Below are positions 20,598-44,865 of a stretch of DNA of 64,000 nt, in pieces. The stretch is from positions 446,308-510,307 of the forward strand of contig CP129477.1 of the NCBI GenBank assembly GCA_030583825.1, in the 5' to 3' direction. The notes beneath the pieces were generated by a model. The model ran no database searches, had not been told where the DNA came from, and worked only from the letters and a program-made list of their open reading frames with translations. Source of the stretch: Candidatus Dojkabacteria bacterium (lineage in GTDB: Bacteria; Patescibacteriota; Dojkabacteria; GCA-002793355). The translations under genes were made by a program, and so were the position numbers. Within the stretch, counting starts at the first letter, position 1; every line of letters begins with the position of its first letter.

Positions 20598-22022
20598 TTA
20601 TTGAAGAACAGCAAATGCACCAACTTTTGTGTTTATGATTGTTGTTGTTTCTCCGTTCACAACAGAAACCGAGACCAAGCCTTTGTTTTCAAGGGGGTAT
20701 TTTTGAGTTGCTTCCCGATCAGTAATATACGCGACGACGTTTGTTGCAGACGAAAAAAGTCCTCCATGAGCCAAGTCTGTTATCTTTTTAGATGAGTCTG
20801 CAGTTGCATAGTGAAGTGCTGTTTGTTTTGTTGTGGTATTAACGGTTGCGTAGATGTAGCCTATGTCAAAAACATTGTGAGCGAGATGAATTCGAACATC
20901 ATTATTAGCAATTTCTCTCGACTGTCTCAATGGAATATCAACTTGCATTACTTTTTTATCAGCAGTGTAAATATAGGCCTCGTCCGAAACAAAGGAACCT
21001 TCCAGTGCAGGGTAGGTATGTTTTGCAGTTTTGGAGCCAGCATCATCAAATATTGCAACAGTTTCATGGTTTGTAAGATCGTCGGCAAATGTTGTCACGT
21101 ACATTACGTATTTTCCTGATTTTGTGTATGAAAGCGTAAATCTATCCGTGAAAGTTTCTTCTCGTGGGGAAGTACTTGGATAAGTCATAAGCACTGTTTT
21201 CTGGCCATCAAAGGCAAAGTATCCTGCCACTGTTTCTCCAAATACGTCTAAAGCAAGAAATCCCATTCTTTCTCCATTTGGAGACCAATCGAGAGCAAGT
21301 TTTTGAACAAGCGGCAACGTATATTCCTGCCCGGTCGTTCTTTTTATCATGTTAAAGGTTCTTATTTTGCATTCCGACTCGCAGAAAGCATAGGTAATTT
21401 CCTCAGTATTTCTCCATGCAACTGCATGAATTTTCGAATATGCATCTAGCATTGGAACAACTTTTGCTTCTGCTGTGCCAGTTACAGAATTAGCATAGAT
21501 TCCATCTTCTTTAACATAAAGCACCGCAAGAGGTATTGTCCCGGAGGTATCTGTATTGTTTCCTGACGGAGCGGGAGTAGGAGTTACCGACGTCTCCTGG
21601 TTTACAGCACGCGAAAACATTCCCAGTTGAGTAATATCTACGCCAAGCTGCTTGAGGACGAATTGAACAAGGAAATATGCCGAAATAGCCACGATAAGAC
21701 CGATGATAACATTCATGATTGCGGATTGAGCTTCTTTTGTTTTGCCGGCATCGCCGCCACTTGTTATATACTTTAACCCTGCAAGAACGAGGTAAAACAC
21801 GGAAGCAATCACAACAATAATAAGAAGAAGGTCAAGAAAACTGCTAATGATTTCAAAAAACTCAATATTTTGCAGGTATTTGGTATTTTTTATGTCCGGG
21901 ATACTGAAATTTAACCCCGATTGTGCGTACATCATTAAGACATTGTAAGGGTTTTTGGGGATGGATGCAAAAAGGATAAAAAGAGAAAGTATTTGTTTCA
22001 GAAATACACCTTCTAGTTTCAC
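20598..22022 (-). CDS. TrbC/VirB2-like pilin module fused to PT linker and ~330-aa extracellular domain
   Basis: Residues ~60-130 (LLIIVVIASVFYLVLAGLKYITSGGDAGKTKEAQSAIMNVIIGLIVAISAYFLVQFVLKQLG) are near-identical in pattern to the pilin-like protein at 30137..30517; then TPTPAPSGNNTDTSGT linker and a large beta-rich domain. Confidence 0.55.
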   Translation of the reverse strand: MKLEGVFLKQILSLFILFASIPKNPYNVLMMYAQSGLNFSIPDIKNTKYLQNIEFFEIISSFLDLLLIIVVIASVFYLVLAGLKYITSGGDAGKTKEAQSAIMNVIIGLIVAISAYFLVQFVLKQLGVDITQLGMFSRAVNQETSVTPTPAPSGNNTDTSGTIPLAVLYVKEDGIYANSVTGTAEAKVVPMLDAYSKIHAVAWRNTEEITYAFCESECKIRTFNMIKRTTGQEYTLPLVQKLALDWSPNGERMGFLALDVFGETVAGYFAFDGQKTVLMTYPSTSPREETFTDRFTLSYTKSGKYVMYVTTFADDLTNHETVAIFDDAGSKTAKHTYPALEGSFVSDEAYIYTADKKVMQVDIPLRQSREIANNDVRIHLAHNVFDIGYIYATVNTTTKQTALHYATADSSKKITDLAHGGLFSSATNVVAYITDREATQKYPLENKGLVSVSVVNGETTTIINTKVGAFAVLQ

Positions 22023-22799: not shown

Positions 22800-23150
22800 C
22801 TAGGTCGTTGGCAACGTGCCTGGCAAGTCTACATCGAAGACTCCAAGAATGAACCCCGCAATCGCGAATGCAGCAAGGACAACGATAAGTCCAATAATTG
22901 CGTTAATTATAAGTTGTTGTGCTGATTGAAGTTCACGAGGATCACCGCGAGACATGATAAATTTGTATCCACCGTAAATAATCATTCCTACGCCGACAAC
23001 GATAATAAGAGAAATTGCTGCAGTAAAAAGTCCTCGAACTGCTGCATCGCCACCACTAGGGCTAAGAAAACCTGCAGTTGGGCCAACTGTTCCAATAACA
23101 TCTACTGTATAACCAAAGGCTCGTGTAAGGATACTTCCCATCATGTTCAA
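22800..23150 (-). CDS. TrbC/VirB2-like pilin-family protein (tandem copy 3)
   Basis: Two hydrophobic helices flanking IYGGYKFIMSRGDPRELQSAQQLIINAIIGLIVV; same module as 23157, 23484, 30137, 30647 and 20598. Confidence 0.6.
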   Translation of the reverse strand: MNMMGSILTRAFGYTVDVIGTVGPTAGFLSPSGGDAAVRGLFTAAISLIIVVGVGMIIYGGYKFIMSRGDPRELQSAQQLIINAIIGLIVVLAAFAIAGFILGVFDVDLPGTLPTT

Positions 23151-23156
23151 CTCTTC

Positions 23157-23462
23157 TTATGTTATGGCATTTATAATAATCGCACGAATAACAAACGCAA
23201 ACAGTACTATTGCAATACCAATAACGGCATTAACGATAATACCTCGAGCTTGTTCTACTTTCTTTGGATCGCCCTGGCTCATCATGTAAGTATATCCGCC
23301 ATAAACAATCAATCCAACAAAAAGAATCGAAAGCAAAGGAAGAACAACGCCAAGAGCGTTGGTTACAAGATCACCGATTGTTCCTGGTGCTCCAGGAGCT
23401 GGAGTAATTTGGCTCAAATCTATAGTTGCGCCTGCGTTTAAACTTGGAAGACGATTTGTCAT
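23157..23462 (-). CDS. TrbC/VirB2-like pilin-family protein (tandem copy 2)
   Basis: LIVYGGYTYMMSQGDPKKVEQARGIIVNAVIGIAIVLFAF; 6-nt gap to next copy. Confidence 0.6.
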   Translation of the reverse strand: MTNRLPSLNAGATIDLSQITPAPGAPGTIGDLVTNALGVVLPLLSILFVGLIVYGGYTYMMSQGDPKKVEQARGIIVNAVIGIAIVLFAFVIRAIIINAIT

Positions 23463-23483
23463 GACCTATTATACAGAAAAGTC

Positions 23484-23909
23484 CTAGCTAATGCCAAGTG
23501 TGCTGAAAACCATGGAAATAATTGCTGTTGCGGTTAAAATCAGTCCAAAACCGAGTAAAGCATTCATTATTTGTTCTTTACCATCTTGAATCTTTTTTGA
23601 TTCTCCGCCACTCATCATAACTTTGTATGCACCAATAACAACAAGTACTAATGCAACGAGGGCACCAACAACGCCAGCTGCGGCTGCAATTTGTGTAACA
23701 AATCCAACACCACCGGTACTTGTATCAAAACAAATTCCAAAGTCGAATTCAATACCGCTACATCCACCGGCGGAAACTGTATATTGAGGAAGAGTCCGGC
23801 CTGTAATAGTTGAAACTAAGCCCGGAAGTGCCTGAGAAACCACTCTCCCCACTGTAGTAAATGATTCTGGCATACTTTGTATTATACCATTTGCTATCCC
23901 TATTTTCAT
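23484..23909 (-). CDS. TrbC/VirB2-like pilin-family protein (tandem copy 1, longer N-region)
   Basis: VIGAYKVMMSGGESKKIQDGKEQIMNALLGFGLILTATAI; 2-nt gap to upstream methyltransferase. Confidence 0.55.
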   Translation of the reverse strand: MKIGIANGIIQSMPESFTTVGRVVSQALPGLVSTITGRTLPQYTVSAGGCSGIEFDFGICFDTSTGGVGFVTQIAAAAGVVGALVALVLVVIGAYKVMMSGGESKKIQDGKEQIMNALLGFGLILTATAIISMVFSTLGIS

Positions 23910-30034: not shown

Positions 30035-30136
30035 AGTTCTTGGTATTTTACCACCGGATTGGACAACCCGGCAATTGACCGTCTTACTCTAATCATATAT
30101 AATCAAATTAAGATAATTTATCTTTGTCATTTGATT

Positions 30137-30517
30137 ATGAAAAAATTTCTCGCAACAGTAGGAACAGCAATTGCCTATGTCAGCATGATCCCATCTACTT
30201 ATGCTGCGACAAACTGGGCACCAACGCAAATTGGAGACGCAAGTGTTGGCGAAATTATTCAAAATGTTTTGAACATTCTTTTGATTATTGTTGTTATTGC
30301 AGCAGTTATCTATATTACTCTTGCAGGTTTGAAATATGTAACCAGCCAGGGTGATGCAGGAAAAGCAAAAGAAGCACAAGCAGCAATCACTAACGCAATT
30401 ATTGGTTTAGTTGTTGCATTCGCAGCATACTTTGTTGTTACTTTCGTCCTTGCACAGCTCGGATTGAATGTAGAAGACTTCGATGTCGAATCAGTAGCTC
30501 GCGCACTGATTGCATAG
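30137..30517 (+). CDS. TrbC/VirB2-like pilin-family protein with signal peptide
   Basis: ATG at 30137 (MKKFLATVGTAIAYVSMIPSTYA|ATN). IAAVIYITLAGLKYVTSQGDAGKAKEAQAAITNAIIGLVVAFAAYF. The ORF-track 29807 start is an antisense extension into metG. Confidence 0.65.
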   Translation: MKKFLATVGTAIAYVSMIPSTYAATNWAPTQIGDASVGEIIQNVLNILLIIVVIAAVIYITLAGLKYVTSQGDAGKAKEAQAAITNAIIGLVVAFAAYFVVTFVLAQLGLNVEDFDVESVARALIA

Positions 30518-30544
30518 AATTCTTTAATTAGATTAGCATTTATT

Positions 30545-30576
30545 AAGAGGCTTTCTTCGGAGAGCCTCTTTTTTTA
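30545..30576 (+). terminator. rho-independent terminator
   Basis: AAGAGGCT-ttcttcggag-AGCCTCTT followed by TTTTTTT directly after the pilin-like gene. Confidence 0.6.
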
Positions 30577-30646
30577 TAAATTTTTCACCGCGATTGTATT
30601 GTGCGGCGATAATGTGTAATAAAAAAAGACGTGCTATAATTTCGCT

Positions 30647-30982
30647 ATGATAAATGCAATTGCCAAGAATCTTCCAACACTTCTCGCAATTAATGCGGGC
30701 CAAGTTATGCAGGGTACCCAAGAACCTCCATCACTTGCAGGCATAATTGCTTTGTTTATTACCCTTTTTAATACATTTGCTTTTACACTTGCACCGATTG
30801 TTATCATCGTTATGATTGTGTATTCAGGAGCCCAGCGAATGATGGGTGGCGATAATCCTGGCAAAGTAGCAGAAGCAAATGCTCGTCTTATGTGGACAGT
30901 CATTGGTGCAGTGTTGCTTTACTTAAGCGTGCTGCTTGTAAACCTTGTTGCCAGCACAGTTGGTGTCGCAACTCCTTTTTAG
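30647..30982 (+). CDS. TrbC/VirB2-like pilin-family protein
   Basis: IVMIVYSGAQRMMGGDNPGKVAEANARLMWTVIGAVLLYLSVLLV; same two-helix module. Confidence 0.55.
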   Translation: MINAIAKNLPTLLAINAGQVMQGTQEPPSLAGIIALFITLFNTFAFTLAPIVIIVMIVYSGAQRMMGGDNPGKVAEANARLMWTVIGAVLLYLSVLLVNLVASTVGVATPF

Positions 30983-31261
30983 TTTAGTAACAAAGGACTC
31001 ATAAAAAGGAATGCTCGGTTTCTTACGCTGAGCTTTTAACGGCACCCCTTGCCGAAAATATGAAATTGTTCATATTTTCCGCTACGGTTCCACTTTTTCA
31101 TCAAAATTCTTGCTGAATGCAAAAGCTCGCTGAAACCTGCGTGCTTTTTACTCATACTTTATTACTAAATGAGACTCTCGTATTTTTATTCTTCAGCGAA
31201 TAAACGGAATTTTACCGCTAATTATTCAGGTTACTATATCCTATATATGCTATAATAGAGT

Positions 31262-33517
31262 ATGAATGTATTGACTGCCCGTCGTACAACATTGTCTTTT
31301 CTCCTGAGCATTATTATATCCGGTATCATTATTGCTTCTATTCTTGTATTACACGGAGCATTTTCTAATACTGCATTTGCGCAAACTGAAGCAGAGATCC
31401 AGGCAGAGAAAAATCAAAAACAGAAAGAACTAAATGGTGTCATTGCAGAAATTAACTCGATTGTTGCATCACGTAACTCTCTTAGCACGAAAATTAAAGA
31501 GCTTCAGGCAGAAAAAACAAAGCTTGAAAACCTTGTGGCTGAAATGAATAAAGACCTCGCAGAAGCAGCAGAACAACTAAAACAGCAGGAAAAAGATCTT
31601 GAAACACTTTCTCAACAGTATGCTCTAAACCACGCTCTCTACTATTTGGAAACTAAGAAAAATGCGGGTGTAGTATTGTTTGAATCACGTGATTTGCGTG
31701 ATTTTCTCGACAGAATGCTATATTTTTCGGTACAAGACAAAGTGATTGCCACTCAAAAAGAATATATCGTTGCAAAGCAGGATGGACTCAAAAACCAAAA
31801 AGGAAATATTGAAGAAGAACAAAAAAAGCTTCAGGAAACAATCGAAGATGTAAATCTGAAACTTTCACAGCTATATTCTGAGCAGGAAGCATTGAATGCA
31901 AAATATAGTCAGTCATTGTCGGCAAGAAGAATGCTAACAAGCGATCTTTCAAATCTCTCCAAAAAAGAGCAGGAAATTCTTAACCAAAAAGCGCAGTCAA
32001 CTGCACCTTCGGGGAACTCAGGCTCATCGGGATCTTCCGGGTCATCGAGTGGGAGTGGAACAACAACAAATCCCGGCACAGTTATTACAACAAGAGGAAT
32101 TGATATTTTTGTCGGCAGCGAGCGAATTGCCAGCACAGATGCTGAAGTAAAAGTTCGAGCAAAAAATAACGGAAGTGTCCTTCTTAACAAAAGCTGTGGA
32201 GGATGTATGGCTCCGGAAATTGCTTACCAGGGATTTCTTGTATTTGATAAATCAAAGCGCCGCACATTCACTGGGGTAGAAGGAACAAAAACGGTAAACG
32301 TAATTAATGACATTAGCGTTGAACAGTATCTTCGAGGACTTGGAGAAATGCCTGCATACTGGGGAAGAAATGAAAAAGGTGGAATCGAAGCACTAAAAGC
32401 TCAGGTGGTTGCAGCACGAACATATGCCTATCGGAAAATGGAGAACTATAAAGGCATTGGCTTTGATTTATATGACACGACTGACGATCAAAACTATGTT
32501 GGTGTGAATAAAGTCGCAACCGGCGATGGTCAGCATTGGGATAGAGCAATCAATGAAACAATTAATATGGCAATCGTTGCAGGAGGAGTTCCTATTTCAG
32601 CATTTTATTCATCTAGTGCAGGTGGACACACAATTGCAACTGAAGAATCTTCAAGCTTTGGTAGTGTTACTTCTTACGCAAAAGCTGTTCCGGACAGATA
32701 CCAAACAAGCGAAGGAAACTGGAGAGACTATGGAGAAAATGTTCCAGATGAGCCAGGAACAGCAGAAACCTCATACTGGCTTCCTTCAGGCAACCGTGCG
32801 CTGAGTCCTGCAGAAGTTACTGAACTTTTGAATGTCGCTATTTTTCTTGATCCAGAAGCAGATGGAACACTTATTTCTGCTAGTCAGCGATACCGTGTGA
32901 CAGACCCTTCAAGCTCAGGATATCTGAATGCTCAGGCTCTTGCTGACCATCTTGGGCCAAATTCAGTACAAAGCAAAGTAGGAACATTAACGTCGGTAAA
33001 ACATGTCTATAATACTGGTGACCAGACTATTCAGCAGGGAACTAAAAATACTCGTTATTTGGAACTAACTGGAGATAAAGGGACAATGCGAATTAGCGGT
33101 CAGGCGTTTAGAACAGGGTACAACTTCCGATCTCCGGGAACAAATGTTATTTGGTCGTCTGCGAATTTACCGCTGTACGATGTCGTTCAGAAAGCAAATT
33201 GTAATGTCGGAGGGACTAATCATTCTCCATGTTGGGAATTTTGGTCACGCGGATATGGACACCGAGTAGGAATGAGCCAGTATGGCGCATATGGAAGAGC
33301 TCGCGCAGGACAGGACTACAGAACAATCCTGAAAGCTTACTATACTAACGTAGATATAGTACAATACTCAATCGGAAGGAATGTAAAAGTTGCAATTACG
33401 AAAGGTGGAAGCACTCAGTCATATATGAAATCTTCTCAGGAGATTGAAATTTATGAAGGAGGAAACCTTATCAGAACAGTTCCTGCCAATACGACAATTA
33501 AAATTGCTTACAACTAA
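31262..33517 (+). CDS. SpoIID/LytB-domain protein with N-terminal TM and coiled coil
   Basis: VEQYLRGLGEMPAYWGRNEKGGIEALKAQVVAARTYAYRKM...DLYDTTDDQNYVG and SRGYGHRVGMSQYGAYGRA match SpoIID/LytB motifs; residues 40-240 heptad-rich; Ser/Gly linker. Confidence 0.65.
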   Translation: MNVLTARRTTLSFLLSIIISGIIIASILVLHGAFSNTAFAQTEAEIQAEKNQKQKELNGVIAEINSIVASRNSLSTKIKELQAEKTKLENLVAEMNKDLAEAAEQLKQQEKDLETLSQQYALNHALYYLETKKNAGVVLFESRDLRDFLDRMLYFSVQDKVIATQKEYIVAKQDGLKNQKGNIEEEQKKLQETIEDVNLKLSQLYSEQEALNAKYSQSLSARRMLTSDLSNLSKKEQEILNQKAQSTAPSGNSGSSGSSGSSSGSGTTTNPGTVITTRGIDIFVGSERIASTDAEVKVRAKNNGSVLLNKSCGGCMAPEIAYQGFLVFDKSKRRTFTGVEGTKTVNVINDISVEQYLRGLGEMPAYWGRNEKGGIEALKAQVVAARTYAYRKMENYKGIGFDLYDTTDDQNYVGVNKVATGDGQHWDRAINETINMAIVAGGVPISAFYSSSAGGHTIATEESSSFGSVTSYAKAVPDRYQTSEGNWRDYGENVPDEPGTAETSYWLPSGNRALSPAEVTELLNVAIFLDPEADGTLISASQRYRVTDPSSSGYLNAQALADHLGPNSVQSKVGTLTSVKHVYNTGDQTIQQGTKNTRYLELTGDKGTMRISGQAFRTGYNFRSPGTNVIWSSANLPLYDVVQKANCNVGGTNHSPCWEFWSRGYGHRVGMSQYGAYGRARAGQDYRTILKAYYTNVDIVQYSIGRNVKVAITKGGSTQSYMKSSQEIEIYEGGNLIRTVPANTTIKIAYN

Positions 33518-34380: not shown

Positions 34381-37269
34381 ATGAATGTGCCCTTTCTTGT
34401 TAAACAATATTTGTCGGAAGACTTAGAACAAGGATCGTTTTCAAAAATCTTTTGGTATTTCCCGTTAAAGCGTGATATGGCGGCCCTTGGCGGCATTGGT
34501 ATGTTTTTTGAGGTGCTCTATGGCGATGTAGATTACGAAGTATACGAACAGATTTCAAAACGTTTTTGGGATACTTTTAGCGAAAATTTCTATACGTTCG
34601 AGTTTGAGCAGGCACTACGAAAATCAATCCAGGCCTTTACGCAATTATTGCGTGGTTTCGGTGTAGAAGAAGGTCTCGATGTAAATATCGTACTTTTTAA
34701 TGCTCGCAAAGAAGACAACTCTTACATATTGAGAATTGTGTCCTTTGGTGAGTCTGATATGTACGTTGTTCGCGGAGGAAAGCTTGCAGACATTTCAAAA
34801 TCAGTGCCGCAAAACAAAACACTCCGTGATATTAAATTTTTGGAAGTTGACCTTGAAGAGAGTGATATTCTTCTTTTGGGAAACAAAACATTGCTGCACA
34901 ATGCATTTGAGTCAGATATTATTGCGCTAGACTCAATGGATGCAGTGCTTCAATCAATGAGCCAATTCAAGGATAATCTTTTTGGAAACAAAAAAGTGTT
35001 TCTTGTCGCAGCGTTAGATAGTGATTCGGCAAAAGAAAAGGAATCTGTAGACGAAGAAGATTCGGCCACATCGCCATTAGCAGGTGTATTGGGTGGAGTT
35101 TCAGCATTTTTTGGTAAGACGGCAACTTCTGTCAAAGATCTGACAAGTAAGTTCCAGACAAGGTTTGGTAAGAAAGATTCTGTTGAGATGGATGCGTTAG
35201 AGCAACTGACAGAAGCAACTCAAAAGCTTCCTGAAGGCATGCCTCTTGCGACAGAGATGAGTCAGCCACAGTTGCCAAAGCGCGATGGCCAACAGTTACG
35301 ACAAGATGATTCTGTCCCGCTTATTAAACCTCCTGCAGATGTGGAAAATGAGAGTGTTGACGATGAATTACCTGTAGGCTCTGCTTCGAAGCAAGAAAAC
35401 GAGTCTATTTTAGAGCCTGTTGCACCGGTTACTTCTCAGCCAAAAGAAGCAGAAGAAATTACCAAGCCAATCGGCAAAGGAATGCCAATGATGCCACCTG
35501 AAGTGCAAGATCGTCCTGAATTGATTATTGCCTCGGAGCAGCAAACTGAAGAAAAAATTGCCGAAATTACATCACCTCAAGAGCCAAAAGGTGTGGAAGA
35601 GAGTTCTCCTGAGACCGAAACAAAAGAAGTTCCAATTATTATGCCGACACCTCCTCAGAAGGAAGATGATGGTATCGAAGCATTGCCAAGTTATCCTTCT
35701 GACATAGATATTGAGCCAGAATTAGAAGTTCCTGCAGCAACTATTTCAGAGAAAAAACCATTAATTCAAACACCAAGTATCCCTGAAGTAGACGATGAAC
35801 CTCCAACGATGAATACGCCGCGTGCTGATGAATTTCGTCCGTATTCAACAACCGTTATTCCCCAAAAGCCTGCAGGAAGTGCAGCCGCAGATTTTCGTAA
35901 CAGACGGTCTCCAACATACAAGCTGGCGGGTGGATTACTTGCAAAAGTTATGCCATTTTTGTCCGGTGCAAAGCAAAAGGTGAGTGAACTGCTTTCGAAA
36001 GTCACAGGAGGGCGATTTAAAGTAGGCAAAATTTTTGTTGGTCAGTCACCAAAAGATAAAAAGGTCATGTATATTGGTATTGGGATTTTTATTCTCGTTG
36101 TGTTCGGGCTTGTATTGTATATTCGGGGACAGTTTGTTCAAGCAGGAAAAGAACGCGATGCACTTGCACAATACGATGCTGCAGTAAATCCATTGCAATC
36201 ATTTTATGATACAAATATCGCGAGTATTACGGTGGAAGATCCAGGTAGGTATTTAGACAAATGTTTCTTAGAGATTTCAACAGCAGAGTCGAAGATTCAG
36301 CAAATTCCTGACGTTATCAAGTCAGAAGACAGTAAGATAAAGCGTGAAGAAAAGGCTGGAAAGTTAGCACAAATAAAAGAGAACTGTACGACAAAGTATG
36401 ACAAGATCAATGGCATTGTTCGCGTTAAAACGGCAAATTTGATTACCGACTTTAGAGTATCTCTTGGCAGTGATGCAGACCCTATAGATATGGCAATTAA
36501 GGGTGGATCGCTTGTTGTTGCAGATAAAGGAAGAAAAGCGATTTATCAGGTGAATCCTGCAAATTCCAGTATTATGAAACTTGAAGATCCTTCAGGACTT
36601 ATTACTGATCCTGTAAGTGTTGGAACCGGCGAAGACATTGTGTTTGCCTGTGATAAAAACAGCGGAGTGGTGTATACAGATACGCAGGAAGGTTTCCGCA
36701 GAATTGTAGGATTGGAGCCTGGAGCCGTGGGAGAATGTTCAATTGTGAAAGGATTCGGTAAGAATGTCTACGTTATCCCAAGCACAAAAGACAGAGTGTT
36801 GCGTTCATTGTACCAAAGCAATGCGTATCAACAACCAACTCGATATATTGACGGCCTTGCAGACGTTCGCGATGTGGTTATTGATGGAAATATCTATATA
36901 GTGTCGGGTGGCGTAGAAAAAGCTGAGGTCTGGAAATTCTTTTCGGGCCGACGAGATACATTTTCACTCGAAGACTCTATCGAAATAGGAAATGCCACAA
37001 GTGCCTACACAAATCCTTCTGATACATACAATATTTATGTGTATGACAAAACAAAGAATCAGGTTATTGGAGTAGAAAAAGCAACTGCGCGTCGTCATCC
37101 GGGAATTGGAACTCAGGCAAGAACGTTTATTTTCGAAAATGCACAGATGTTCAATGATGTCCGAGACATCGTTGTTGACCTCCGTGACGCTCGGGAAGTA
37201 TATATGTATGTGTTAAATGGCTCAACCATTTGGCAGGTTTCGGTTCCTCGTGTAGAGACGGGAGAATAA
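34381..37269 (+). CDS. large bitopic protein: degenerate PP2C-like N-domain, acidic disordered region, TM, extracellular C-domain
   Basis: 962 aa. N-domain has PP2C-like blocks (MAALGGIGMFF; FGESDMYVVRGGKL; DILLLGNKTLLHNA) without the metal-binding Asp residues. E/P/D-rich ~300 aa. TM IGIGIFILVVFGLVLYI. Then ~400 aa beta-rich. Confidence 0.5.
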   Translation: MNVPFLVKQYLSEDLEQGSFSKIFWYFPLKRDMAALGGIGMFFEVLYGDVDYEVYEQISKRFWDTFSENFYTFEFEQALRKSIQAFTQLLRGFGVEEGLDVNIVLFNARKEDNSYILRIVSFGESDMYVVRGGKLADISKSVPQNKTLRDIKFLEVDLEESDILLLGNKTLLHNAFESDIIALDSMDAVLQSMSQFKDNLFGNKKVFLVAALDSDSAKEKESVDEEDSATSPLAGVLGGVSAFFGKTATSVKDLTSKFQTRFGKKDSVEMDALEQLTEATQKLPEGMPLATEMSQPQLPKRDGQQLRQDDSVPLIKPPADVENESVDDELPVGSASKQENESILEPVAPVTSQPKEAEEITKPIGKGMPMMPPEVQDRPELIIASEQQTEEKIAEITSPQEPKGVEESSPETETKEVPIIMPTPPQKEDDGIEALPSYPSDIDIEPELEVPAATISEKKPLIQTPSIPEVDDEPPTMNTPRADEFRPYSTTVIPQKPAGSAAADFRNRRSPTYKLAGGLLAKVMPFLSGAKQKVSELLSKVTGGRFKVGKIFVGQSPKDKKVMYIGIGIFILVVFGLVLYIRGQFVQAGKERDALAQYDAAVNPLQSFYDTNIASITVEDPGRYLDKCFLEISTAESKIQQIPDVIKSEDSKIKREEKAGKLAQIKENCTTKYDKINGIVRVKTANLITDFRVSLGSDADPIDMAIKGGSLVVADKGRKAIYQVNPANSSIMKLEDPSGLITDPVSVGTGEDIVFACDKNSGVVYTDTQEGFRRIVGLEPGAVGECSIVKGFGKNVYVIPSTKDRVLRSLYQSNAYQQPTRYIDGLADVRDVVIDGNIYIVSGGVEKAEVWKFFSGRRDTFSLEDSIEIGNATSAYTNPSDTYNIYVYDKTKNQVIGVEKATARRHPGIGTQARTFIFENAQMFNDVRDIVVDLRDAREVYMYVLNGSTIWQVSVPRVETGE

Positions 37270-37437
37270 TATTTCACTAAGCACTGAGTCATTTGAACGA
37301 GCCCACCATTTTTCGTCGCAGATATACCATTGATAATTCAATAATGATTTGCGTAACGATAAATGCGTGCTGTGAGTGAAAATTACATAGTGCTTATATT
37401 TCCCGAATATCGCGCTTGTTGTAGTATAATCAATACA

Positions 37438-37902
37438 ATGAAAGTTATTTCCAAAAACAAAAAGGCGTTTTTTGACTACGAAATCATAGAAAAGTTTGTT
37501 GCCGGAGTTGTATTGCAGGGACACGAGGTAAAGTCTATAAAAGCCGGACATGTCAGCCTTGATGGAGCATATGTATTTGTAAAGCCAGGCGAAGCAATTT
37601 TGCGAAACGCAATTGTTCCTCCATGGACTCATGCTAACAGAACCAGTCTTGCAGGATACGAACCAGCCCGCGATCGAGGACTTCTTTTAACAAAGAAACA
37701 AATTAATCTCATTGTGGGGAAAAGAAAAGAAATCCGCGCAATTGTTGTGCCACTCGCAATCGGAACAGAGAAAAATCTCGTAAAGCTTGAGATTGGACTT
37801 GCTCGTCCACTCCGAAAATACGACAAAAAGAATCGTCGCAAAGAGCGAGATGAAAAGTTGGCAGTGCAACGAAAAAAGAAAACTGTCGAAACTCGGTGGT
37901 AA
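37438..37902 (+). CDS. smpB: SsrA-binding protein
   Basis: MKVISKNKKAFFDYEIIEKFVAGVVLQGHEVKSIKAG... canonical SmpB N-terminus; ATG 37438 preferred over ORF-track 37363; basic C-tail. Confidence 0.85.
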   Translation: MKVISKNKKAFFDYEIIEKFVAGVVLQGHEVKSIKAGHVSLDGAYVFVKPGEAILRNAIVPPWTHANRTSLAGYEPARDRGLLLTKKQINLIVGKRKEIRAIVVPLAIGTEKNLVKLEIGLARPLRKYDKKNRRKERDEKLAVQRKKKTVETRW

Positions 37903-37950: not shown

Positions 37951-38919
37951 ATGATTTTTGCGAAGGATCTCACTAAAGAATTTCCTATTTTCAAAAGAGG
38001 TAAAGGGTTTCCCGGTGTGTTTTTTATCAAAGAGAGAAGTAAGTTTACTGCAGTTAAATCACTTGACCTCTCAATAGAAAAAGGCGAGTTTGTTGCATTC
38101 CTTGGCCCAAACGGCGCAGGAAAAACAACAACTCTAAAAATGCTCAGTGGCGTACTTCATCCCACAGAGGGAGAAATTTCCGTAAATGGATTTGTTCCTT
38201 ATGAGCGAAAAAAGCAATTCAAACGTGATATCAGCTTTGTCATGGCACAGAAGACCCAGCTTTTCCTGGAGCTTCCTGTTAAAGATACATTCACCTTTAT
38301 TGGAGAAATCTACGATGTTCCTAAATCAGAATATGACAAGAGAATCTCACACATGATTGAGCGTTTTGATCTTGGAGATAAGCTTGAAACTCTTGGCAGA
38401 AAGCTAAGCCTCGGACAAAGAATGAAATGTGAACTAGTATGTGCACTTATTTATCAGCCAAAGGTTTTATTTCTTGACGAGCCAACTATTGGGCTGGATA
38501 TTAACAGCGCAAAAGAGGTTCGAAATTTTCTTACAGAAATTAATAAAGAATTCGGCGTTACGATACTTTTGACTACTCACAATATGTCCGATGTTGAGGA
38601 ACTTTGCAATCGCACAATTGTGATTAATAAAGGAGAGAAAGTCTTTGATGGAAGTACCTCGGAGCTTAAAAAACTTTTTGGAACTAAGCGTGAAATAGAA
38701 TTTGTAGTAGAGAATCCGAAGCAATTAATTGCTCAACTTCAAAGCAATAAAGATATTGTGATAATGAATTCAACAGAGAGCTCGGTGAGAATTTCCTGCG
38801 AGAGATCTGGCGCTTCAAAAATAATTGCAGAAATTATGAATCAGGTTGAGGTTTTGGATATAAATTTCTACGATGCAGATCTTGCTGACATTGTAGGAAA
38901 ACTATACAGACAAGTGTAA
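37951..38919 (+). CDS. ABC transporter ATP-binding protein (ABC-2 type)
   Basis: Walker A GPNGAGKTT, signature LSLGQRMK, Walker B LFLDEPT, H-loop TTHNM. Confidence 0.85.
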   Translation: MIFAKDLTKEFPIFKRGKGFPGVFFIKERSKFTAVKSLDLSIEKGEFVAFLGPNGAGKTTTLKMLSGVLHPTEGEISVNGFVPYERKKQFKRDISFVMAQKTQLFLELPVKDTFTFIGEIYDVPKSEYDKRISHMIERFDLGDKLETLGRKLSLGQRMKCELVCALIYQPKVLFLDEPTIGLDINSAKEVRNFLTEINKEFGVTILLTTHNMSDVEELCNRTIVINKGEKVFDGSTSELKKLFGTKREIEFVVENPKQLIAQLQSNKDIVIMNSTESSVRISCERSGASKIIAEIMNQVEVLDINFYDADLADIVGKLYRQV

Positions 38920-38928
38920 TTCAGGCTT

Positions 38929-39702
38929 ATGAAAGGACTACAATCTTTTGTTATTGCGCATTTCAAGTACGCAGTCCGCGTTCCGTGGGGTGCTGTGACG
39001 TCGTTTTCTGTGTCGGTTGGTTACAGTGTTGTAATGACTCTCCAAATATTCTTTACGTATAAAATTACACAAACACCATTTCCCGATCTTCCATTTGAGT
39101 TATTTCTCCTGTGTTTTTTTATGAATCAGGTTATATTTTTCATAGGACTTGCCTGTGGAGTTGGAAATATAGGCAGATTTTGCCGTACTCTTATCAACGG
39201 CGGAATTGATATGATGTTGCTTCGTCCTGTTCCTATGGCCTTTTACATGTTTGCGCAAAGAATCCGAGTAGATCATATCACTATGCTGGGCATTTATGTC
39301 ATTTTATTTCTCTATCAATCTATTGCAATTGGCCTCGATTTCCCTCGTATCCTAATGCTTTCTCTGTATTGCTTTATTAGCGGGATTCTTTATTTTCTTC
39401 TTGTTGTTTTTTATAACGGAATAGGGTGCTTACTGAGAAATGTTGATAATATAAGAAGAGTTGCGACAAGCGCAGACGAATTGCTCCAAAACCGTCCACC
39501 CGAGATATTTCCTAGGCCTGTACAGTTCTTTTTTACGTTTGTTTTTCCTATGATGTTTGCCGGAAGCTATATTTTCGACCTTGTCCGCAATCGAGAGTCA
39601 CTGTTTATTTGGGTTATTCTTATATTTTGGCTAGCCGTTATATCCTTCCTGAATTGGGGATTGTGGCACCATATATTTAAAAACTACGAGAGTATAGGCT
39701 AA
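38929..39702 (+). CDS. ABC-2 family permease
   Basis: 257 aa, 6 TMs, directly downstream of ATPase. Confidence 0.5.
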   Translation: MKGLQSFVIAHFKYAVRVPWGAVTSFSVSVGYSVVMTLQIFFTYKITQTPFPDLPFELFLLCFFMNQVIFFIGLACGVGNIGRFCRTLINGGIDMMLLRPVPMAFYMFAQRIRVDHITMLGIYVILFLYQSIAIGLDFPRILMLSLYCFISGILYFLLVVFYNGIGCLLRNVDNIRRVATSADELLQNRPPEIFPRPVQFFFTFVFPMMFAGSYIFDLVRNRESLFIWVILIFWLAVISFLNWGLWHHIFKNYESIG

Positions 39703-40460
39703 TGAAGGCATATTGGTTTATTGTAAAAAACAGTTTTAAGTCATCTTCTCAATTTTTTATTGACCTTGTGTTTGCGGTGGCTAATCCCATCTTGCAGGTA
39801 CTTGGTTTGTTACTATTCTATTCTTTTGTTTTAAACCAGCAGACGGGACTCGATAGCTCTGTTGTTTTGTATTTTCTCTTTGTTATGATGACTTCCGGTG
39901 TAGAGCTGTTTCGTTTTGCAACAGATATTGGTCAGGATATAGAAAGTGACTACTACCTCACAATTGATAAATTGCCAATAAATCCGTTTGTTTATTACAT
40001 GCTCCAAAACTTAGGGAAAAATCTTGCTCCAATCACATTCTTGGGCATAGGTGTCTTGCCGATACTTATCTTTTACAAAGTTTCTGCCGCAATTATCATT
40101 CTCTTTTATATTGCAACTCTTCTCGCTCTTGTTATTTCTTATCTCATTTTCTTTATAGTAGGAGCTGCAAGGTTTTTTACCAGTGCACTTGAGCCGTGGC
40201 TTTTTGGAATAATTTTCCAATTTCTGAGTGGAAAATTGATCCCCATAACGTTTCTTCCGAGTCAATATTTCTCGTTGTTTTTAAGTTTTATGCCTTTCAT
40301 TTACGCTTCTGGTGCGTATGCAACGTACATTAGTGAGGGAAATCTCACAGGTTTGCTATTTGGAATGGGAATCGGAACATTGTGGTGCGGGATTCTCTTT
40401 GTGTTTGCTACCTTTTTATGGAACAAAGGAGTTTCTCGATATCAGGAATTAGGAGAGTAA
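39702..40460 (+). CDS. ABC-2 family permease (second subunit)
   Basis: 252 aa, 6 TMs, start overlaps previous stop. Confidence 0.5.
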   Translation: MKAYWFIVKNSFKSSSQFFIDLVFAVANPILQVLGLLLFYSFVLNQQTGLDSSVVLYFLFVMMTSGVELFRFATDIGQDIESDYYLTIDKLPINPFVYYMLQNLGKNLAPITFLGIGVLPILIFYKVSAAIIILFYIATLLALVISYLIFFIVGAARFFTSALEPWLFGIIFQFLSGKLIPITFLPSQYFSLFLSFMPFIYASGAYATYISEGNLTGLLFGMGIGTLWCGILFVFATFLWNKGVSRYQELGE

Positions 40461-40581
40461 GGTTTCTTGTCATAAAGTGAGTGGAAGAACGCCGAACTTA
40501 TTACCAAATATACGTGGATTATTGACGTGAATGCCTAGTTAGCTGACTGTATTTACAACACGCTTTCCTTTATAATGAAAT

Positions 40582-41460
40582 ATGACGATGAATCCAAATG
40601 GGGGATCAACTCCAGAACAACAGGGATATTCCACACAGCCGGGAATTGAGCCGGGTGCATTAGAATATTCCGGTCGGGATGCTCCTACTTTACAAGAAGA
40701 AGCGCCGGCACTTGGCGCTGAATTTCAGGCACCACCACAGGAAATGCCTCCTCAAGGCCAAGAAATGCCGTATTTACCCCCGGAAGCAGAGCAGCCGCAG
40801 TATGAGAGCACTCCGATGCAAACTGAATATCCAGGGCAGCCTACAGAAGCGCCTATGCCCAACATAGAAGGCACTTATGGGCCTCAGGAAGGCGCCACAG
40901 AGCCACAGAATGACCCAGAGGGCTATACAGAAACACCACAGACATTTGAACAGCCAGAAACCTATACGGTAACGCCAGATGGGCAAGAAGTCGTTACTCC
41001 AGAAAGTGCGCCAGTCCCTCAGCAGATGTATCATTTTCCTCAACAGGAAATGCAGCCACAGCAAACACCTCAGGTTGAAGCTCGACCTCAACAAATCCCA
41101 CAGCAGGAGTTATATACTCAGCAGGCAGAACGATTCGTTGAAACAAGCAGAACTCCGGAATTTCAAACACAGTTACGTGCAAGAAAGAGCAAAGAGGGGG
41201 AATTAGTCTATGTAAATCCGAATCTTGATCCATCTCTTGGACAGCAGGGAAGCTCTTCATCACAGGGACAGGTGACAACACAGCAAGTTACTTCACAAAT
41301 TGGGGGATATCCGGTAAGTCACACAGTTTCGGGTAATCCGCAGGCAGCACTTATTCAGCAAATTGTGCAAAGCGGAGATCCACACTCTGCAAATACATGG
41401 CATGCGGTCATTGTAAACAAGCTAGTAAAAGTATTGCTTCGGATGTTGCCGGGAAGCTAA
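40582..41460 (+). CDS. Pro/Gln/Glu-rich low-complexity protein
   Basis: 292 aa dominated by PQ(E) repeats; no TM; upstream of the coupling-protein gene, same strand. Confidence 0.4.
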   Translation: MTMNPNGGSTPEQQGYSTQPGIEPGALEYSGRDAPTLQEEAPALGAEFQAPPQEMPPQGQEMPYLPPEAEQPQYESTPMQTEYPGQPTEAPMPNIEGTYGPQEGATEPQNDPEGYTETPQTFEQPETYTVTPDGQEVVTPESAPVPQQMYHFPQQEMQPQQTPQVEARPQQIPQQELYTQQAERFVETSRTPEFQTQLRARKSKEGELVYVNPNLDPSLGQQGSSSSQGQVTTQQVTSQIGGYPVSHTVSGNPQAALIQQIVQSGDPHSANTWHAVIVNKLVKVLLRMLPGS

Positions 41461-41524: not shown

Positions 41525-43984
41525 ATGATATACTTTGAGCAGATGACTGCCTCTTATTTAGTCGCACAACTGGGAACAAACGTATCACGATCGGCTGGGA
41601 CTTCAGGCAATTCCGACATATTTGTCACAATCATTTTTGTTATTATTTTCGTTTTAGCACTGCTTATTGCTGGTTTATTAACCTATTTATTGGCAAAAAA
41701 CGTACAAAACAAAGATCGTGAGGAAAAATCCTTACACTACACCATTTTTATTGTCAGAATGGCTCATGGAAATGAATCGCAGATTAAAGCAGCAGAGCAA
41801 ATGTTCAGCAGTTTGTATGGAATTTACGAAAAGAAGGGCATTATTGATCAAATGACGAAGGCCGACGAGGGGCTTTCTTTTGAAATTATTGCGTATCCAG
41901 AGCATATTGGCTTTTACGTATATGTCCCAGAAAGATTTGCACAACTTGCAGAAAAACAAATTCTTGGAGCATATCAAGATGCCGAAGTATTGCAGGTTCC
42001 AGAGCCAAACTTTTTTAAGGAGGGAGCGTCAGTTGTGAGTGGAACATTCGAAATTACCGACGAGCAATATCTTCCTGTAAAAACATATGCAGACTATGAA
42101 GAAAAAGCCGATCCTCTGACTTCAATCACAGGAGCATTCGCAAATATGATTGACGGTGAAGGTGGAGCATTGCAAGTGTTAATAACTCCGGCAGGTTCAG
42201 ACTGGTCATCGAGTGGGCAGAAATATATTCAAAAGATTAATGAGCATAATAACGATCCTGAAAAAAAGAATAAAATCACTGTTCCACAGGAGAAAATCCA
42301 GGCAATTCAGAAAAAGACAGCAAAAGTAGGATTCAAAGTAAATATTCGTGCCGTAATGTGTGCAGATACTCAAGACATGGCAATGGCACGATTAAATACA
42401 CTTGCAGGGTCAATTTCACAGCTTGCAAATCCGGGTCTAAACGGGTTCAAGTTCAAAAAGGTCGAAGGAAACGGGCTTCGTGAGTTTATGAACGACTTTG
42501 TCTATCGCCGAGTGTCTCCAACCAAAACGGTTTTGAATGTTGAAGAGCTTGCGACGATTTATCACTTTCCAAACCAGAATACGCAAACACCGAATATTGA
42601 ATGGCTTATTGCACGAAAAGCTGCTCCTCCTCCAAACTTACCGAAAGCTGGGTTGTGGGTTGGTGCATCTGCATACCGAGGCATTAATCGTGATGTATTT
42701 ATGGGTGATGACGACCGTCGCCGTCACACATACATTATTGGACAAACCGGTACAGGTAAATCATGGTTCTTAGCAAATATGATTTTGCAAGACATTTATA
42801 TGGGCAAAGGACTTGCATTGCTTGATCCTCACGGTGCAACAGTTGAGCAAGTTCTTGAGCGCATTCCTCCTGAAAGAGCCGAAGATGTCATTTATTTTAA
42901 CCCTGCAGATGTACAACGTCCGTTTGGAATGAACTATATAGAATTCCGCAACGAATACGAAAAGCACGAAATTGTGAACGGATTTCTTGGCTTGATGAAA
43001 AAGATGTTCGATCCGCACGATCAGGGTATTGTAGGCCCGCGATTTGAGCGTGCTGTACGAAATGCCATGCTTACGGTTATGGCAGAGCAGGGAAATACAT
43101 TGGTTGAAGTGTTGCGGTGTATCGCAGACGAGCAATTTGCTTTGTCATTCATGGATAAAATTGATGACGACGAAGTCCGAAACTATTGGCTGAAAGAAAT
43201 GGCCTCGACCGAGAAAAAAGATAAATCTGAAATTCTTGGATGGCTTACGTCAAAGTTTGACCGTTTTGTTACAAATATTTTAATTCGCCACATTATTGGG
43301 CAGAGTGAGTCATCGTTTAACTTCCGCCAGGTGATGGATAATAAGAAAATTTTGCTCGTAAACTTGTCGAAAGGTTTGATCGGCGAAGAAAACGCTCAAT
43401 TCTTGGGCTTGCTAGTTATTCCAAAGATTTTACGCGCAGCGCTCAGCCGCGAAGATATTCATGAATCCGAGCGTCAAGACTTTTACTTGTACGTTGACGA
43501 GTTTCAAAACTTTGCGACAGAAGACTTTGCGCAGATTTTGTCTGAAGCACGTAAATACCGCCTGAATCTTATAGTCGCGAACCAGTATATTCAGCAGATG
43601 TCTGAAAAGATCCGCAATGCGGTCTTTGGTAACGTTGGTACATTGGTCAGTTTCCGCGTTGGCGCAGGTGATGCAGAGTATCTTTCCAAAGAATTCGCCC
43701 CGGTATTTGAGGATCAGGACTTGATTAAGCTCGAAAACGCAAATGTGTACATAAAAACATTGATTAATGGTGTTGCAATGCCGCCATTCTCGATGAGCAC
43801 ATTTTATAACATTAATGAGCGCTATCCAAAGCACGAAAGAGTAGGCGATTTGATTAAGCAGTTGTCACGAACAAGATATGGCCGTGATGAGCAATATGTA
43901 AAAGAAGCTATCAAAATGAGGGCAGCCCGACCGGAAGTAGCAAAGCCTGCCCAACCGGCAATGAAACCTCCGCTTGTTTTCTAA
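41525..43984 (+). CDS. VirD4/TrwB/TraD-like type IV coupling protein (membrane-anchored FtsK-HerA-superfamily ATPase)
   Basis: N-terminal TM; HTYIIGQTGTGKSWFLANMILQDIYMGKGLALLDPHGATVEQ...VIYFNPADVQRPFGMNYIEFRNEYE parallels TrwB GATGTGKS...IVDPNGD...ILNPYDQRT...FFNEIRNDYD; Walker B YLYVDEFQNF; RKYRLNLIVANQYIQQ (RK...Q sensor). SD GGGGGAAAT before ATG. Confidence 0.6.
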   Translation: MIYFEQMTASYLVAQLGTNVSRSAGTSGNSDIFVTIIFVIIFVLALLIAGLLTYLLAKNVQNKDREEKSLHYTIFIVRMAHGNESQIKAAEQMFSSLYGIYEKKGIIDQMTKADEGLSFEIIAYPEHIGFYVYVPERFAQLAEKQILGAYQDAEVLQVPEPNFFKEGASVVSGTFEITDEQYLPVKTYADYEEKADPLTSITGAFANMIDGEGGALQVLITPAGSDWSSSGQKYIQKINEHNNDPEKKNKITVPQEKIQAIQKKTAKVGFKVNIRAVMCADTQDMAMARLNTLAGSISQLANPGLNGFKFKKVEGNGLREFMNDFVYRRVSPTKTVLNVEELATIYHFPNQNTQTPNIEWLIARKAAPPPNLPKAGLWVGASAYRGINRDVFMGDDDRRRHTYIIGQTGTGKSWFLANMILQDIYMGKGLALLDPHGATVEQVLERIPPERAEDVIYFNPADVQRPFGMNYIEFRNEYEKHEIVNGFLGLMKKMFDPHDQGIVGPRFERAVRNAMLTVMAEQGNTLVEVLRCIADEQFALSFMDKIDDDEVRNYWLKEMASTEKKDKSEILGWLTSKFDRFVTNILIRHIIGQSESSFNFRQVMDNKKILLVNLSKGLIGEENAQFLGLLVIPKILRAALSREDIHESERQDFYLYVDEFQNFATEDFAQILSEARKYRLNLIVANQYIQQMSEKIRNAVFGNVGTLVSFRVGAGDAEYLSKEFAPVFEDQDLIKLENANVYIKTLINGVAMPPFSMSTFYNINERYPKHERVGDLIKQLSRTRYGRDEQYVKEAIKMRAARPEVAKPAQPAMKPPLVF

Positions 43985-44120: not shown

Positions 44121-44149
44121 TTGAATAAAATCCTATAGTATGATATAAT
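44121..44149 (+). promoter_or_regulatory. sigma70-type promoter
   Basis: TTGAAT - 17 bp - TATAAT upstream of CDS 44189. Confidence 0.4.
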
Positions 44150-44188
44150 ATTGCATCATTCTTTTTGTTCCACAAGGAGTTCCGGCAC

Positions 44189-44542
44189 ATGCAAATCCCA
44201 CAAGAAGTTCTCGATATACGCGATGTTCTCGTAGGTGAAAGTGACTATGGTATGTCAGATATTCCAGAAGATTTTAGTCTTGCGACTCATGTGCAAGATG
44301 AAATGCAAGGGATGTTTGAGCATATTGCTTTTACCCAAGAAGACGTTGCTTTGTTTCGTGAATTTCGGGAACACTTTCCTCAGGTTAGTGACATGATTCG
44401 AGTTATCGGCTGGAGAGTATTTCTCGAAGACAAGTCTTACGTAATATTCATTGACCAACGCACCAACAATTACGTGGGCTATGCCTATCTTCTAAACACC
44501 GATACCTTTGAGTGGATTCTCTCAGAATTCAAAAACCTCTAA
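44189..44542 (+). CDS. hypothetical acidic cytoplasmic protein
   Basis: Start chosen at ATG 44189, preceded by AAGGAG SD 8 nt upstream (ORF track begins at 44165); no motif recognised. Confidence 0.45.
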   Translation: MQIPQEVLDIRDVLVGESDYGMSDIPEDFSLATHVQDEMQGMFEHIAFTQEDVALFREFREHFPQVSDMIRVIGWRVFLEDKSYVIFIDQRTNNYVGYAYLLNTDTFEWILSEFKNL

Positions 44543-44754: not shown

Positions 44755-44826
44755 GGGCGTATAGCTCAGTGGTAGAGCACTGTTCTTATAAAGCAGCGGT
44801 CCATGGTTCGATCCCATGTACGCCCA
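44755..44826 (+). tRNA. tRNA with anticodon UAU (nominally Ile, decodes AUA)
   Basis: Acceptor GGGCGTA/TACGCCC, D-arm GCTC-AGTGGTA-GAGC, anticodon arm CTGTT-CTTATAA-AGCAG (TAT at 44787-44789), T-arm CATGG-TTCGATC-CCATG, discriminator A. Confidence 0.8.
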
Positions 44827-44865
44827 CTATCTTGTGTTTTTATCGAATTTAGGACTATAATTGTC

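Follow-up and report, generated by a model that had tools for sequence, protein, structure and literature searches.

Type IV coupling proteins (T4CPs) such as TrwB of plasmid R388, VirD4, TraD and DotL share a homologous nucleotide-binding domain (NBD) with an inserted all-alpha domain (AAD), conserved Walker A and Walker B motifs and an N-terminal membrane anchor that canonically consists of two transmembrane (TM) helices. The other ATPase family of type IV secretion systems (T4SSs), VirB4, includes TrwK of R388 (PDB entries 7o42, 8rtd and 8rtb), whose VirB4-specific N-terminal domain (NTD) comprises residues 15–400 and is wrapped by VirB3 (PMC9259494). Both families have been surveyed in the Patescibacteria, or candidate phyla radiation (CPR). 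That survey (Quinonero-Coronel et al., 2025; PMC12102498) reports 5,713 VirD4-like T4CPs in 2,918 of 3,035 genomes, only 148 of these genes being near virB4, relaxases in only 103 genomes and VirB4 in 2,417 genomes (80%), Dojkabacteria among them. The T4SS of the phylum is described there as chromosomal, relaxase-less, pilin-rich and of monoderm type, often encoded near the replication origin, and its VirB4 as a well-defined clade of its own that is encoded with TrsD, VirB3 and VirB6. In this study, we analysed a stretch of 64,000 nucleotides (64 kb) of a Candidatus Dojkabacteria chromosome (assembly GCA_030583825.1, contig CP129477.1, positions 446,308 to 510,307), referred to as the window, in which a first-pass annotation had noted a VirD4/TrwB-like coupling ATPase with no relaxase or VirB4 gene beside it. 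Such an orphan T4CP is already published and is not new, so the observation is less novel than had been assumed. What appears to be new is a predicted VirB4-like N-domain in the ATPase, the presence of the same architecture on a Bacillus plasmid, SPO1-like phages and haloarchaeal plasmids, and a small partner gene upstream. As to its role, we lean, if only slightly, towards a domesticated monoderm-type coupling ATPase that receives substrates for, or energises, the relaxase-less chromosomal T4SS of the CPR, the small upstream protein being its adaptor, regulator or substrate.

The ATPase gene and the parts of its product are as follows.

41525..43984, + strand: gene of the membrane-anchored ATPase (DUF8128 plus T4CP-type domain), 819 amino acids, ATG start, equal to NCBI WKZ30603.1
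41624..41695, + strand: single N-terminal TM helix, residues ~34–57, with a basic stretch after it (hydropathy 3.27; helix 30–68 in the model)
41732..42559, + strand: DUF8128 N-domain, residues ~70–345, alpha/beta, with a predicted VirB4-NTD-like fold (precomputed PF26449; Foldseek)
42653..43924, + strand: T4CP-type nucleotide-binding domain, residues ~377–800 (PF02534, PF10412 and PF12696; hhalign; Foldseek)
42740..42763, + strand: Walker A motif GQTGTGKS, residues 406–413, with G406, G409, G411 and K412 invariant
42953..43339, + strand: all-alpha insertion, residues ~477–605, at the position of the T4CP AAD (model helices; the PF10412 and TrwB alignments span it)
43487..43501, + strand: Walker B motif LYVDE, residues 655–659, with D658 and E659 invariant

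The identical NCBI protein stems from a 1.09-Mb contig of Ca. Dojkabacteria (WS6, Patescibacteria/CPR) and is named 'type IV secretory system conjugative DNA transfer family protein'. The length of 819 residues and the single TM helix given in the first-pass annotation were both confirmed, and all six ATPase motifs that it listed were recovered at the expected spacing: GQTGTGKS, LLDPHG (432–437), NPAD (459–462), FRNEY (474–478), LYVDEFQNF (655–663) and RKYRLNLIVANQ (676–687). Among 61 homologues with 31–70% identity to the protein, R676, K677, Q687 and Q691 are invariant together with the Walker residues listed above, a pattern that suggests a catalytically competent ATPase. The basic segment KNVQNKDREEK follows the TM helix and suggests an N-out/C-in topology, in which the remainder of the protein would be cytoplasmic. 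An AlphaFold2 (AF2) model of the whole protein reached a pLDDT of 87.4.

The reading of the ATPase core as T4CP-type is upheld by Pfam, by hhalign and by profile matches to the PDB. PF02534 (T4SS-DNA_transf) scores 41–43 bits over 330 residues (cut-off 20.1), PF10412 (TrwB_AAD_bind) 26–29 bits (cut-off 20.5) and PF12696 27.1 bits, likewise above its gathering cut-off. In hhalign the family profile aligns with TrwB at 93.5% probability (E 2.2e-7) over 274 columns that cover both NBD and AAD, whereas the family profiles reach only 2–8% with the VirB4s TrwK and PrgJ, and there only over the ATPase motifs. A profile search of PDB sequences with the family returned TrwB (8.9e-8), DotL (1.5e-6) and, after those, HerA, and no VirB4 chain even at E<=10. 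The comparison of hidden Markov models (HMMs) that had been proposed as a check, with HerA/DUF87 and VirB4 as the competing families, thus gave a T4CP as the best match. In the structural comparison, Foldseek matched the whole model to TrwB (TMt ~0.6) and also to Cag-beta (PDB 8dol), and in the model the helical block 477–605 separates the two Walker motifs. None of the curated NCBIfam T4CP models was reached (SXT_TraD 50 against a cut-off of 366 bits, CD1115 VirD4-like 36 against 250, TOL TraD 26 against 648), which indicates that, judged by its sequence, the ATPase is a distant member of the TrwB/VirD4/TraD coupling-protein lineage. Unlike TrwB, VirD4, TraD and DotL, it has one TM helix rather than two (an amphipathic helix instead in two relatives) and an extra domain, DUF8128, of ~275 residues between anchor and ATPase, and it is encoded by a core chromosomal gene with no adjoining relaxase or T4SS gene.

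This extra domain had been described as a long linker, a description that did not survive: the region between the TM helix and the ATPase is conserved across the homologues of the family, and residues ~70–345 constitute a conserved folded domain, DUF8128 (PF26449). The PF26449 assignment is precomputed for the identical protein and for 120 of 120 homologues among the matches listed; a local Pfam copy without the PF26449 model gave no match to the region at E<=10. A model of DUF8128 alone (AF2, pLDDT 92.6, pTM 0.90) was compared with the PDB using Foldseek, and the top 14 matches were all chains of R388 TrwK/VirB4 (E 5e-8 to 8e-5, probability 1.0), aligned over ~385 columns with TMq 0.40–0.49; the next-best match had a probability of 0.6 and a TM-score of 0.18. 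Since no other RecA-type ATPase is found among the PDB matches of the N-domain, the match is to the VirB4-specific NTD and not to the ATPase. DUF8128 is thus predicted, from its modelled fold, to resemble the VirB4 NTD. Given the T4CP-type ATPase and the folded DUF8128, the description that suits the protein best is a single TM helix, then a domain with a predicted VirB4-NTD-like fold, then an ATPase of T4CP type that contains an all-alpha insertion. With TrwK it shares the predicted N-domain fold and the order of membrane element, N-domain and RecA-type ATPase with a helical insertion; it differs in that sequence similarity is limited to the ATPase motifs, the ATPase half is closer to T4CPs and the TM helix is part of the same polypeptide instead of a separate VirB3. 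The literature searched contained nothing on PF26449/DUF8128, the VirB4-like N-domain of these proteins or the upstream partner gene. The T4CP homologues of the Patescibacteria survey are, like this one, VirD4-like, about two per genome, far from virB4 and from a phylum with almost no relaxases, but neither the N-domain nor an upstream partner is mentioned in the parts of the survey available to us (PMC12102498). Membership of the DUF8128 family among its hits was not confirmed, the WS6 homologue KKR06440.1 being absent from the part of the supplement searched.

Outside the CPR, tblastn found relatives with the full architecture on haloarchaeal megaplasmids, Bacillus plasmids, SPO1-like phages, phage G and phage D6E. 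The 913-residue 'DUF87 domain-containing protein' of the Bacillus subtilis plasmid NZ_OX419581.1 aligns with the family over 657 columns and both domains (hhalign 100%, E 2.9e-50). Its gene lies directly upstream of one that RefSeq names a 'replication-relaxation family protein', within a TcpC/TcpD/TcpE cluster in which a separate TcpF/AAA_10 VirB4 is present. Plasmid pLS20 was considered as the source of the Bacillus homologue and rejected, because the pLS20 T4CP has 786 residues, two N-terminal TM helices and another gene order (PMC8557374). In phage SPO1, the gene of gp27.4 (906 residues; L094 3770–7307) overlaps that of gp27.3, annotated as 'replication initiation by nicking', and is preceded by a 'partition protein'; these neighbours suggest a plasmid-like DNA-processing module within lytic phages. 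A search of the BFVD with the N-domain returned proteins of Bacillus phage JL, phage G (gp156) and phage Slash (S5MSQ0, G3MBM2 and U5Q0H6) with TMq 0.71–0.73. The 913-residue plasmid protein, SPO1 gp27.4 and phage G gp156 thus share the full two-domain architecture with the Dojkabacteria ATPase, but the plasmid and phage genes are carried by mobile elements beside an annotated relaxase or nickase, whereas the CPR genes have no such neighbours and have a small partner with a Trp-containing helix instead. Among haloarchaeal megaplasmids (H1–H15, H26–H55), which hold relatives of both domains, several records annotate the N-domain and the ATPase as two genes, so that the haloarchaeal gene may be split in two; Halorubrum salinarum pHAR01 (L093 8797–16020) encodes a giant protein of 2,407 residues that begins with the N-domain. 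On monoderm mobile elements, the combination of DUF8128 and ATPase appears to occupy the coupling-protein position beside an annotated DNA-nicking enzyme, and the genes of the CPR have the look of descendants or relatives that became domesticated and lost the nicking partner.

Several T4CPs work with small dedicated partners, such as Cag-beta with CagZ, F TraD with TraM and pIP501 TraJ with TraI. The Dojkabacteria ATPase likewise has a small gene beside it, the product of which we propose may bind, regulate or anchor it; the CPR partner differs in being mostly disordered, with a short conserved C-terminal helix only.

40582..41460, + strand: candidate partner gene, 292 amino acids, P/Q/E/T-rich and disordered, ending in a Trp-containing basic amphipathic helix (...ANTWHAVIVNKLVKVLLRML), 64 nucleotides (nt) upstream of the ATPase gene

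Pro, Gln, Glu and Thr make up 48% of this protein. A promoter and terminator scan did no better than on shuffled sequence and was used only for the absence of an intergenic terminator-like site; none lies between the two genes, which are probably co-transcribed. A perfect TATAAT (40571–40582 region) stops 5 nt short of the partner gene's ATG, and the partner mRNA may consequently be leaderless. A small co-directional gene stands directly upstream of the ATPase gene in 65 of 84 loci, often overlapping its start. In Microgenomatia the products of these genes form a clear family: their N-terminal part is disordered, they carry 'PE[IV]..WL.KVE' and 'LP[LI]T' motifs, and their C-terminal helix reads '...S..RWLAEW..R.IK'. 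An HMM of the partner motifs identified 26 members among ~1,500 open reading frames (ORFs), every one of them upstream of the ATPase gene or fused to it. A database search added 194 members, all unnamed and none with a Pfam domain, and for four of four of these, taken from fresh contigs, a DUF8128 gene follows at a distance of −1 to 75 nt. In-frame fusions of the partner to the N-domain were found at two loci, L032 (9515–12256) and L048 (233–2773), where the TM helix is replaced and the disordered region with its 'RWL...R..KKL' helix is joined directly to DUF8128; as the TM helix is missing from these fusions, the amphipathic helix may stand in as a membrane-targeting element. The 292-residue protein itself has a clear homologue in the related locus L006 (1.6e-17) and shares position, composition and the C-terminal Trp helix (TWHAVIVNKLVKVLL) with the Microgenomatia partners; the HMM of that family missed it. 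Saccharibacteria loci (L077–L085) carry a different conserved small upstream protein with the motif 'IEKEWV..AK.IV.QTK.DPY...Y', and their ATPases are longer (950–1030 residues).

The ATPase family is large, with 22,113 cluster representatives (50% clustering) at E<=1e-3 and 5,610 at E<=1e-30, and covers Dojkabacteria, many Microgenomatia lineages, WWE3, Berkelbacteria, Falkowbacteria, Portnoybacteria and Saccharibacteria. In the species genomes of GTDB, 593 of 600 pattern matches, among the matches listed, encode a relative of the ATPase with 36–71% identity. The gene is a vertically inherited chromosomal core gene of the CPR. Two DUF8128-T4CP paralogues, in tandem or a few kilobases apart, occur in each of the loci L064 (1128–6163), L074 (9920–18548) and L081 (9944–17281), which fits the published mean of about two T4CP genes per genome. 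Metagenomic 'long forms' of 1,400–2,000 residues were also seen (P0127, P0144, P0147, P0150–P0153, P0192 and others), in some of which ~1,000 unrelated residues precede an ATPase at the very C-terminus. Gene context was surveyed in 83 non-redundant CPR loci, where the recurrent neighbours are a Xer-type recombinase (26 of 83 loci), DivIC (17/83), ribonucleotide reductase (RNR; 14/83), cobalamin adenosyltransferase (14/83), SmpB (12/83), NrdR (10/83) and FtsH (8/83).

The first-pass annotation had also pointed to pilin-like genes some 10–20 kb from the ATPase gene. These exist 10.9–20.9 kb upstream and are six in all; they are not type IV pilus genes but belong to the T4SS_pilin type (PF18895; VirB2/TrbC-type).

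30647..30982, + strand: T4SS_pilin (VirB2/TrbC-like) gene, PF18895 38 bits
30137..30517, + strand: pilin-like ORF (signal peptide, two TM helices), found with a pilin HMM built here and masked in simple ORF listings, where a longer ORF overlaps it
22800..23909, − strand: three tandem T4SS_pilin genes (22800–23150, 23157–23462 and 23484–23909), PF18895 34–36 bits each
20598..22022, − strand: gene of a 474-residue protein with an N-terminal T4SS_pilin domain (residues 55–122) and a long C-terminal extension, PF18895 40.5 bits

The pilin gene at 30647..30982 is possibly part of the same apparatus as the ATPase. A gene order of pilins, SpoIID, a protein of 780–960 residues, SmpB and, further on, the ATPase is kept in Dojkabacteria. 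At ~30000–32000 the cumulative GC skew has its minimum, with minus-strand genes to the left and plus-strand genes to the right, which together suggest a replication origin. The six pilin ORFs flank this apparent origin on both sides; dnaN lies at 26625–27758 (−), and dnaA is not adjacent, its place being taken by MetRS. Pilins by the apparent origin agree with the published origin-near T4SS genes of Patescibacteria.

Ordinary chromosomal sequence makes up the remainder of the window, where FtsK, DnaG, DnaN, MetRS, KsgA, MurJ, SmpB (37363–37902) and NrnA-like proteins are encoded at a flat GC content of 0.42–0.43. Around the ATPase gene it holds the P/Q-rich protein upstream, the tRNA and the ABC-2 exporter that had been described there (the exporter at 37951–40460, tRNA-Ile(TAT) at 44755–44827 on the + strand). 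An anticodon TAT (UAU) is uncommon in bacterial tRNA-Ile, AUA usually being read by a modified CAU tRNA. An Rfam scan of the window found two tRNAs and nothing else. The small ORF downstream of the ATPase gene more likely starts at ATG 44190, with an AAGGAG ribosome-binding site and an extended −10 promoter-like site (44121–44190), and on account of these signals is probably a separate transcription unit. Window ORFs without a Pfam match comprise an Nramp-like transporter (recognized by eye), an MFS-like transporter (weak Pfam match, E 0.063) and single-pass or soluble proteins. One of them, at 34381–37269 (+), encodes a protein of 962 residues for which one TM helix is predicted and neither Pfam, NCBIfam nor PDB sequences gave a match; it lies in Dojkabacteria synteny between the pilin/SpoIID genes and SmpB, has homologues in nine loci and could be an unrecognized envelope or T4SS-associated component. 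Large proteins of 1,323, 1,172 and 1,083 residues are encoded at 3694–7665 (+), 56284–59802 (+) and 59817–63068 (−). These three have at most fn3, purple-acid-phosphatase-N or CarboxypepD_reg-type domains (the 1,083-residue protein has no PDB sequence match) and probably belong to the cell surface, where CPR epibionts typically have such proteins.

How such a protein might work as a coupling ATPase can be outlined from its parts. The TM helix would hold the ATPase, presumably a hexamer, at the cytoplasmic face of the membrane, and the N-domain may dock it onto membrane components in the way that the tails of VirB3 and VirB8 are bound by the VirB4 NTD in R388. The invariant Walker A/B site could then hydrolyse ATP to drive the hand-over of a non-relaxase substrate, a protein or possibly a nucleic acid, to a receiver that we take to be the chromosomal, pilin-rich T4SS encoded elsewhere in the genome, with the small partner acting as adaptor, regulator, membrane tether or substrate. 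The position of the homologue within the Tcp cluster of the Bacillus plasmid places this subtype in a conjugation context and was counted in favour of the coupling role.

Several results weigh against this outline. No VirB4, VirB6 or VirB8 gene was found in the 64-kb window, as had been noted for relaxase and VirB4 beside the ATPase gene, and in the 83 CPR loci no cluster of VirB4, VirB3, VirB6, VirB8, TrsD or relaxase genes adjoins it. Pilin-like ORFs lie within 10 kb of the ATPase gene in only five of the 83 loci, all of Dojkabacteria type; a pilin–ATPase association as a general rule was therefore rejected and, the synteny being specific to Dojkabacteria, pilin nearness is weak evidence of a functional link. 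The dispersed T4SS-like apparatus proposed in the first-pass annotation draws its support from the published survey (PMC12102498). The tie of the N-domain to VirB4 is purely structural and model-based, at moderate TM-scores of 0.40–0.49, with no sequence support from Pfam at E<=10, hhalign to TrwK and PrgJ or PDB profile searches. The neighbour of the plasmid homologue has no Pfam or NCBIfam match, and its relaxase label accordingly goes back to the RefSeq name alone. The Dojkabacteria-type and Microgenomatia-type partner alignments are weakly linked, at 38% in hhalign (E 3.4e-4) over 27 columns with the C-terminal helix in register. In Southlakia epibionticum, the T4SS genes are essential and the T4CP homologue is reported to be non-essential, and the survey's authors raise a possible exaptation of t4cp (PMC12102498); an essential T4SS locus without a recognizable coupling protein has also been described (Wang et al., 2023; PMC10633639).

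The strongest competitor to the coupling role follows from these points. An exapted, T4SS-independent machine, in which ATPase and partner would act on their own as a membrane translocase or a remodelling ATPase (handling DNA or protein in uptake, division or interaction with the host, for instance), is in our judgement unlikely, yet it deserves serious attention. It would accommodate the 148 of 5,713 T4CP genes near virB4 and the Southlakia phenotype in the survey (PMC12102498), the dedicated partner gene in a locus with no adjoining T4SS genes, and the neighbours from division and DNA metabolism, above all the Xer-type recombinase, DivIC and RNR, although the latter may merely be conserved core synteny within Microgenomatia. 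By the account of the same survey, T4CP genes are often away from virB4 in ordinary systems as well (PMC12102498), and the presence of about two paralogues per genome can account for non-essentiality. Nor does the prevalence of 96% of genomes for T4CP against 80% for VirB4 show that the T4CP is independent of VirB4, because these values are those of two copies against one at ~80% detection per gene (arithmetic, not a test). The same architecture is moreover found in the Tcp-like conjugation module of the Bacillus plasmid, where a coupling protein is expected, and a bona fide FtsK is encoded in the window.

We regard as improbable that the protein is a divergent VirB4, that is, a T4SS assembly or pilus-biogenesis ATPase with a fused VirB3-like TM helix, and not a coupling protein. 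Its succession of TM helix, VirB4-NTD-like domain and ATPase with a helical insertion mirrors VirB3–VirB4 fusions, the best whole-model Foldseek E-value belongs to full-length TrwK/VirB4 (3.9e-16), which is also the sole credible PDB match of the N-domain, and pilin genes lie upstream in Dojkabacteria. Every sequence-level method nevertheless groups the ATPase half with T4CPs, the VirB4 models TIGR00929 (E 0.008 over 20 residues) and AAA_10/PF12846 (15 bits) matching the P-loop only. The Bacillus plasmid homologue coexists with its separate TcpF/AAA_10 VirB4, and the Patescibacteria are credited in the survey with a VirB4 clade of their own that is encoded with TrsD, VirB3 and VirB6 (PMC12102498).

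A HerA- or FtsK-type DNA helicase or translocase for repair or chromosome segregation is highly improbable. DUF87 (26 bits) and, weakly, FtsK_SpoIIIE match the protein, HerA structures occur in the Foldseek and PDB profile searches, and some relatives are named 'DUF87 domain-containing protein', but both Pfam matches are confined to ~40 P-loop residues (~394–437), against ~330 residues for the T4CP models. No NurA-like or Mre11/Rad50-like neighbour was seen, and a separate complete FtsK (alpha, gamma and 4TM domains) is encoded at 7755–10088. We give the least credence of all to a remnant of an integrated conjugative or mobilizable element, for which the tRNA-Ile gene 770 nt downstream of the ATPase gene and the relatives on plasmids and phages might speak, since the window holds no integrase, relaxase or T4SS core genes, no att-like direct repeat near tRNA-Ile and no departure from its flat GC content, the ATPase gene keeps its synteny with SmpB, SpoIID and the pilins across Dojkabacteria, and it occurs in hundreds of CPR species at 36–71% identity; the earlier verdict that this is not a mobile conjugation module is borne out by the same features together with the housekeeping neighbours.

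A broader conjecture, which we put forward tentatively and consider doubtful, is that the DUF8128 coupling ATPases keep a VirB4-like N-domain as an intermediate between VirB4 and VirD4 or as an old chimera, and that in the CPR they were domesticated with a Trp-helix partner as a relaxase-free core ATPase for a non-conjugative substrate, possibly apart from the T4SS. The DUF8128-T4CP architecture bears in any event on the kinship of the two T4SS ATPase families, VirB4 and T4CP. It also offers experimental handles: the VirB4-like N-domain as a possible docking module, the small and sometimes fused partner, and the full-length homology to Bacillus plasmid and SPO1-type proteins. CPR bacteria, or Patescibacteria, are obligate epibionts, and in the only species in which this was tested their type IV apparatus proved essential; the DUF8128-T4CP family, present in nearly every CPR genome, is the obvious candidate for the substrate receptor of this relaxase-less apparatus.

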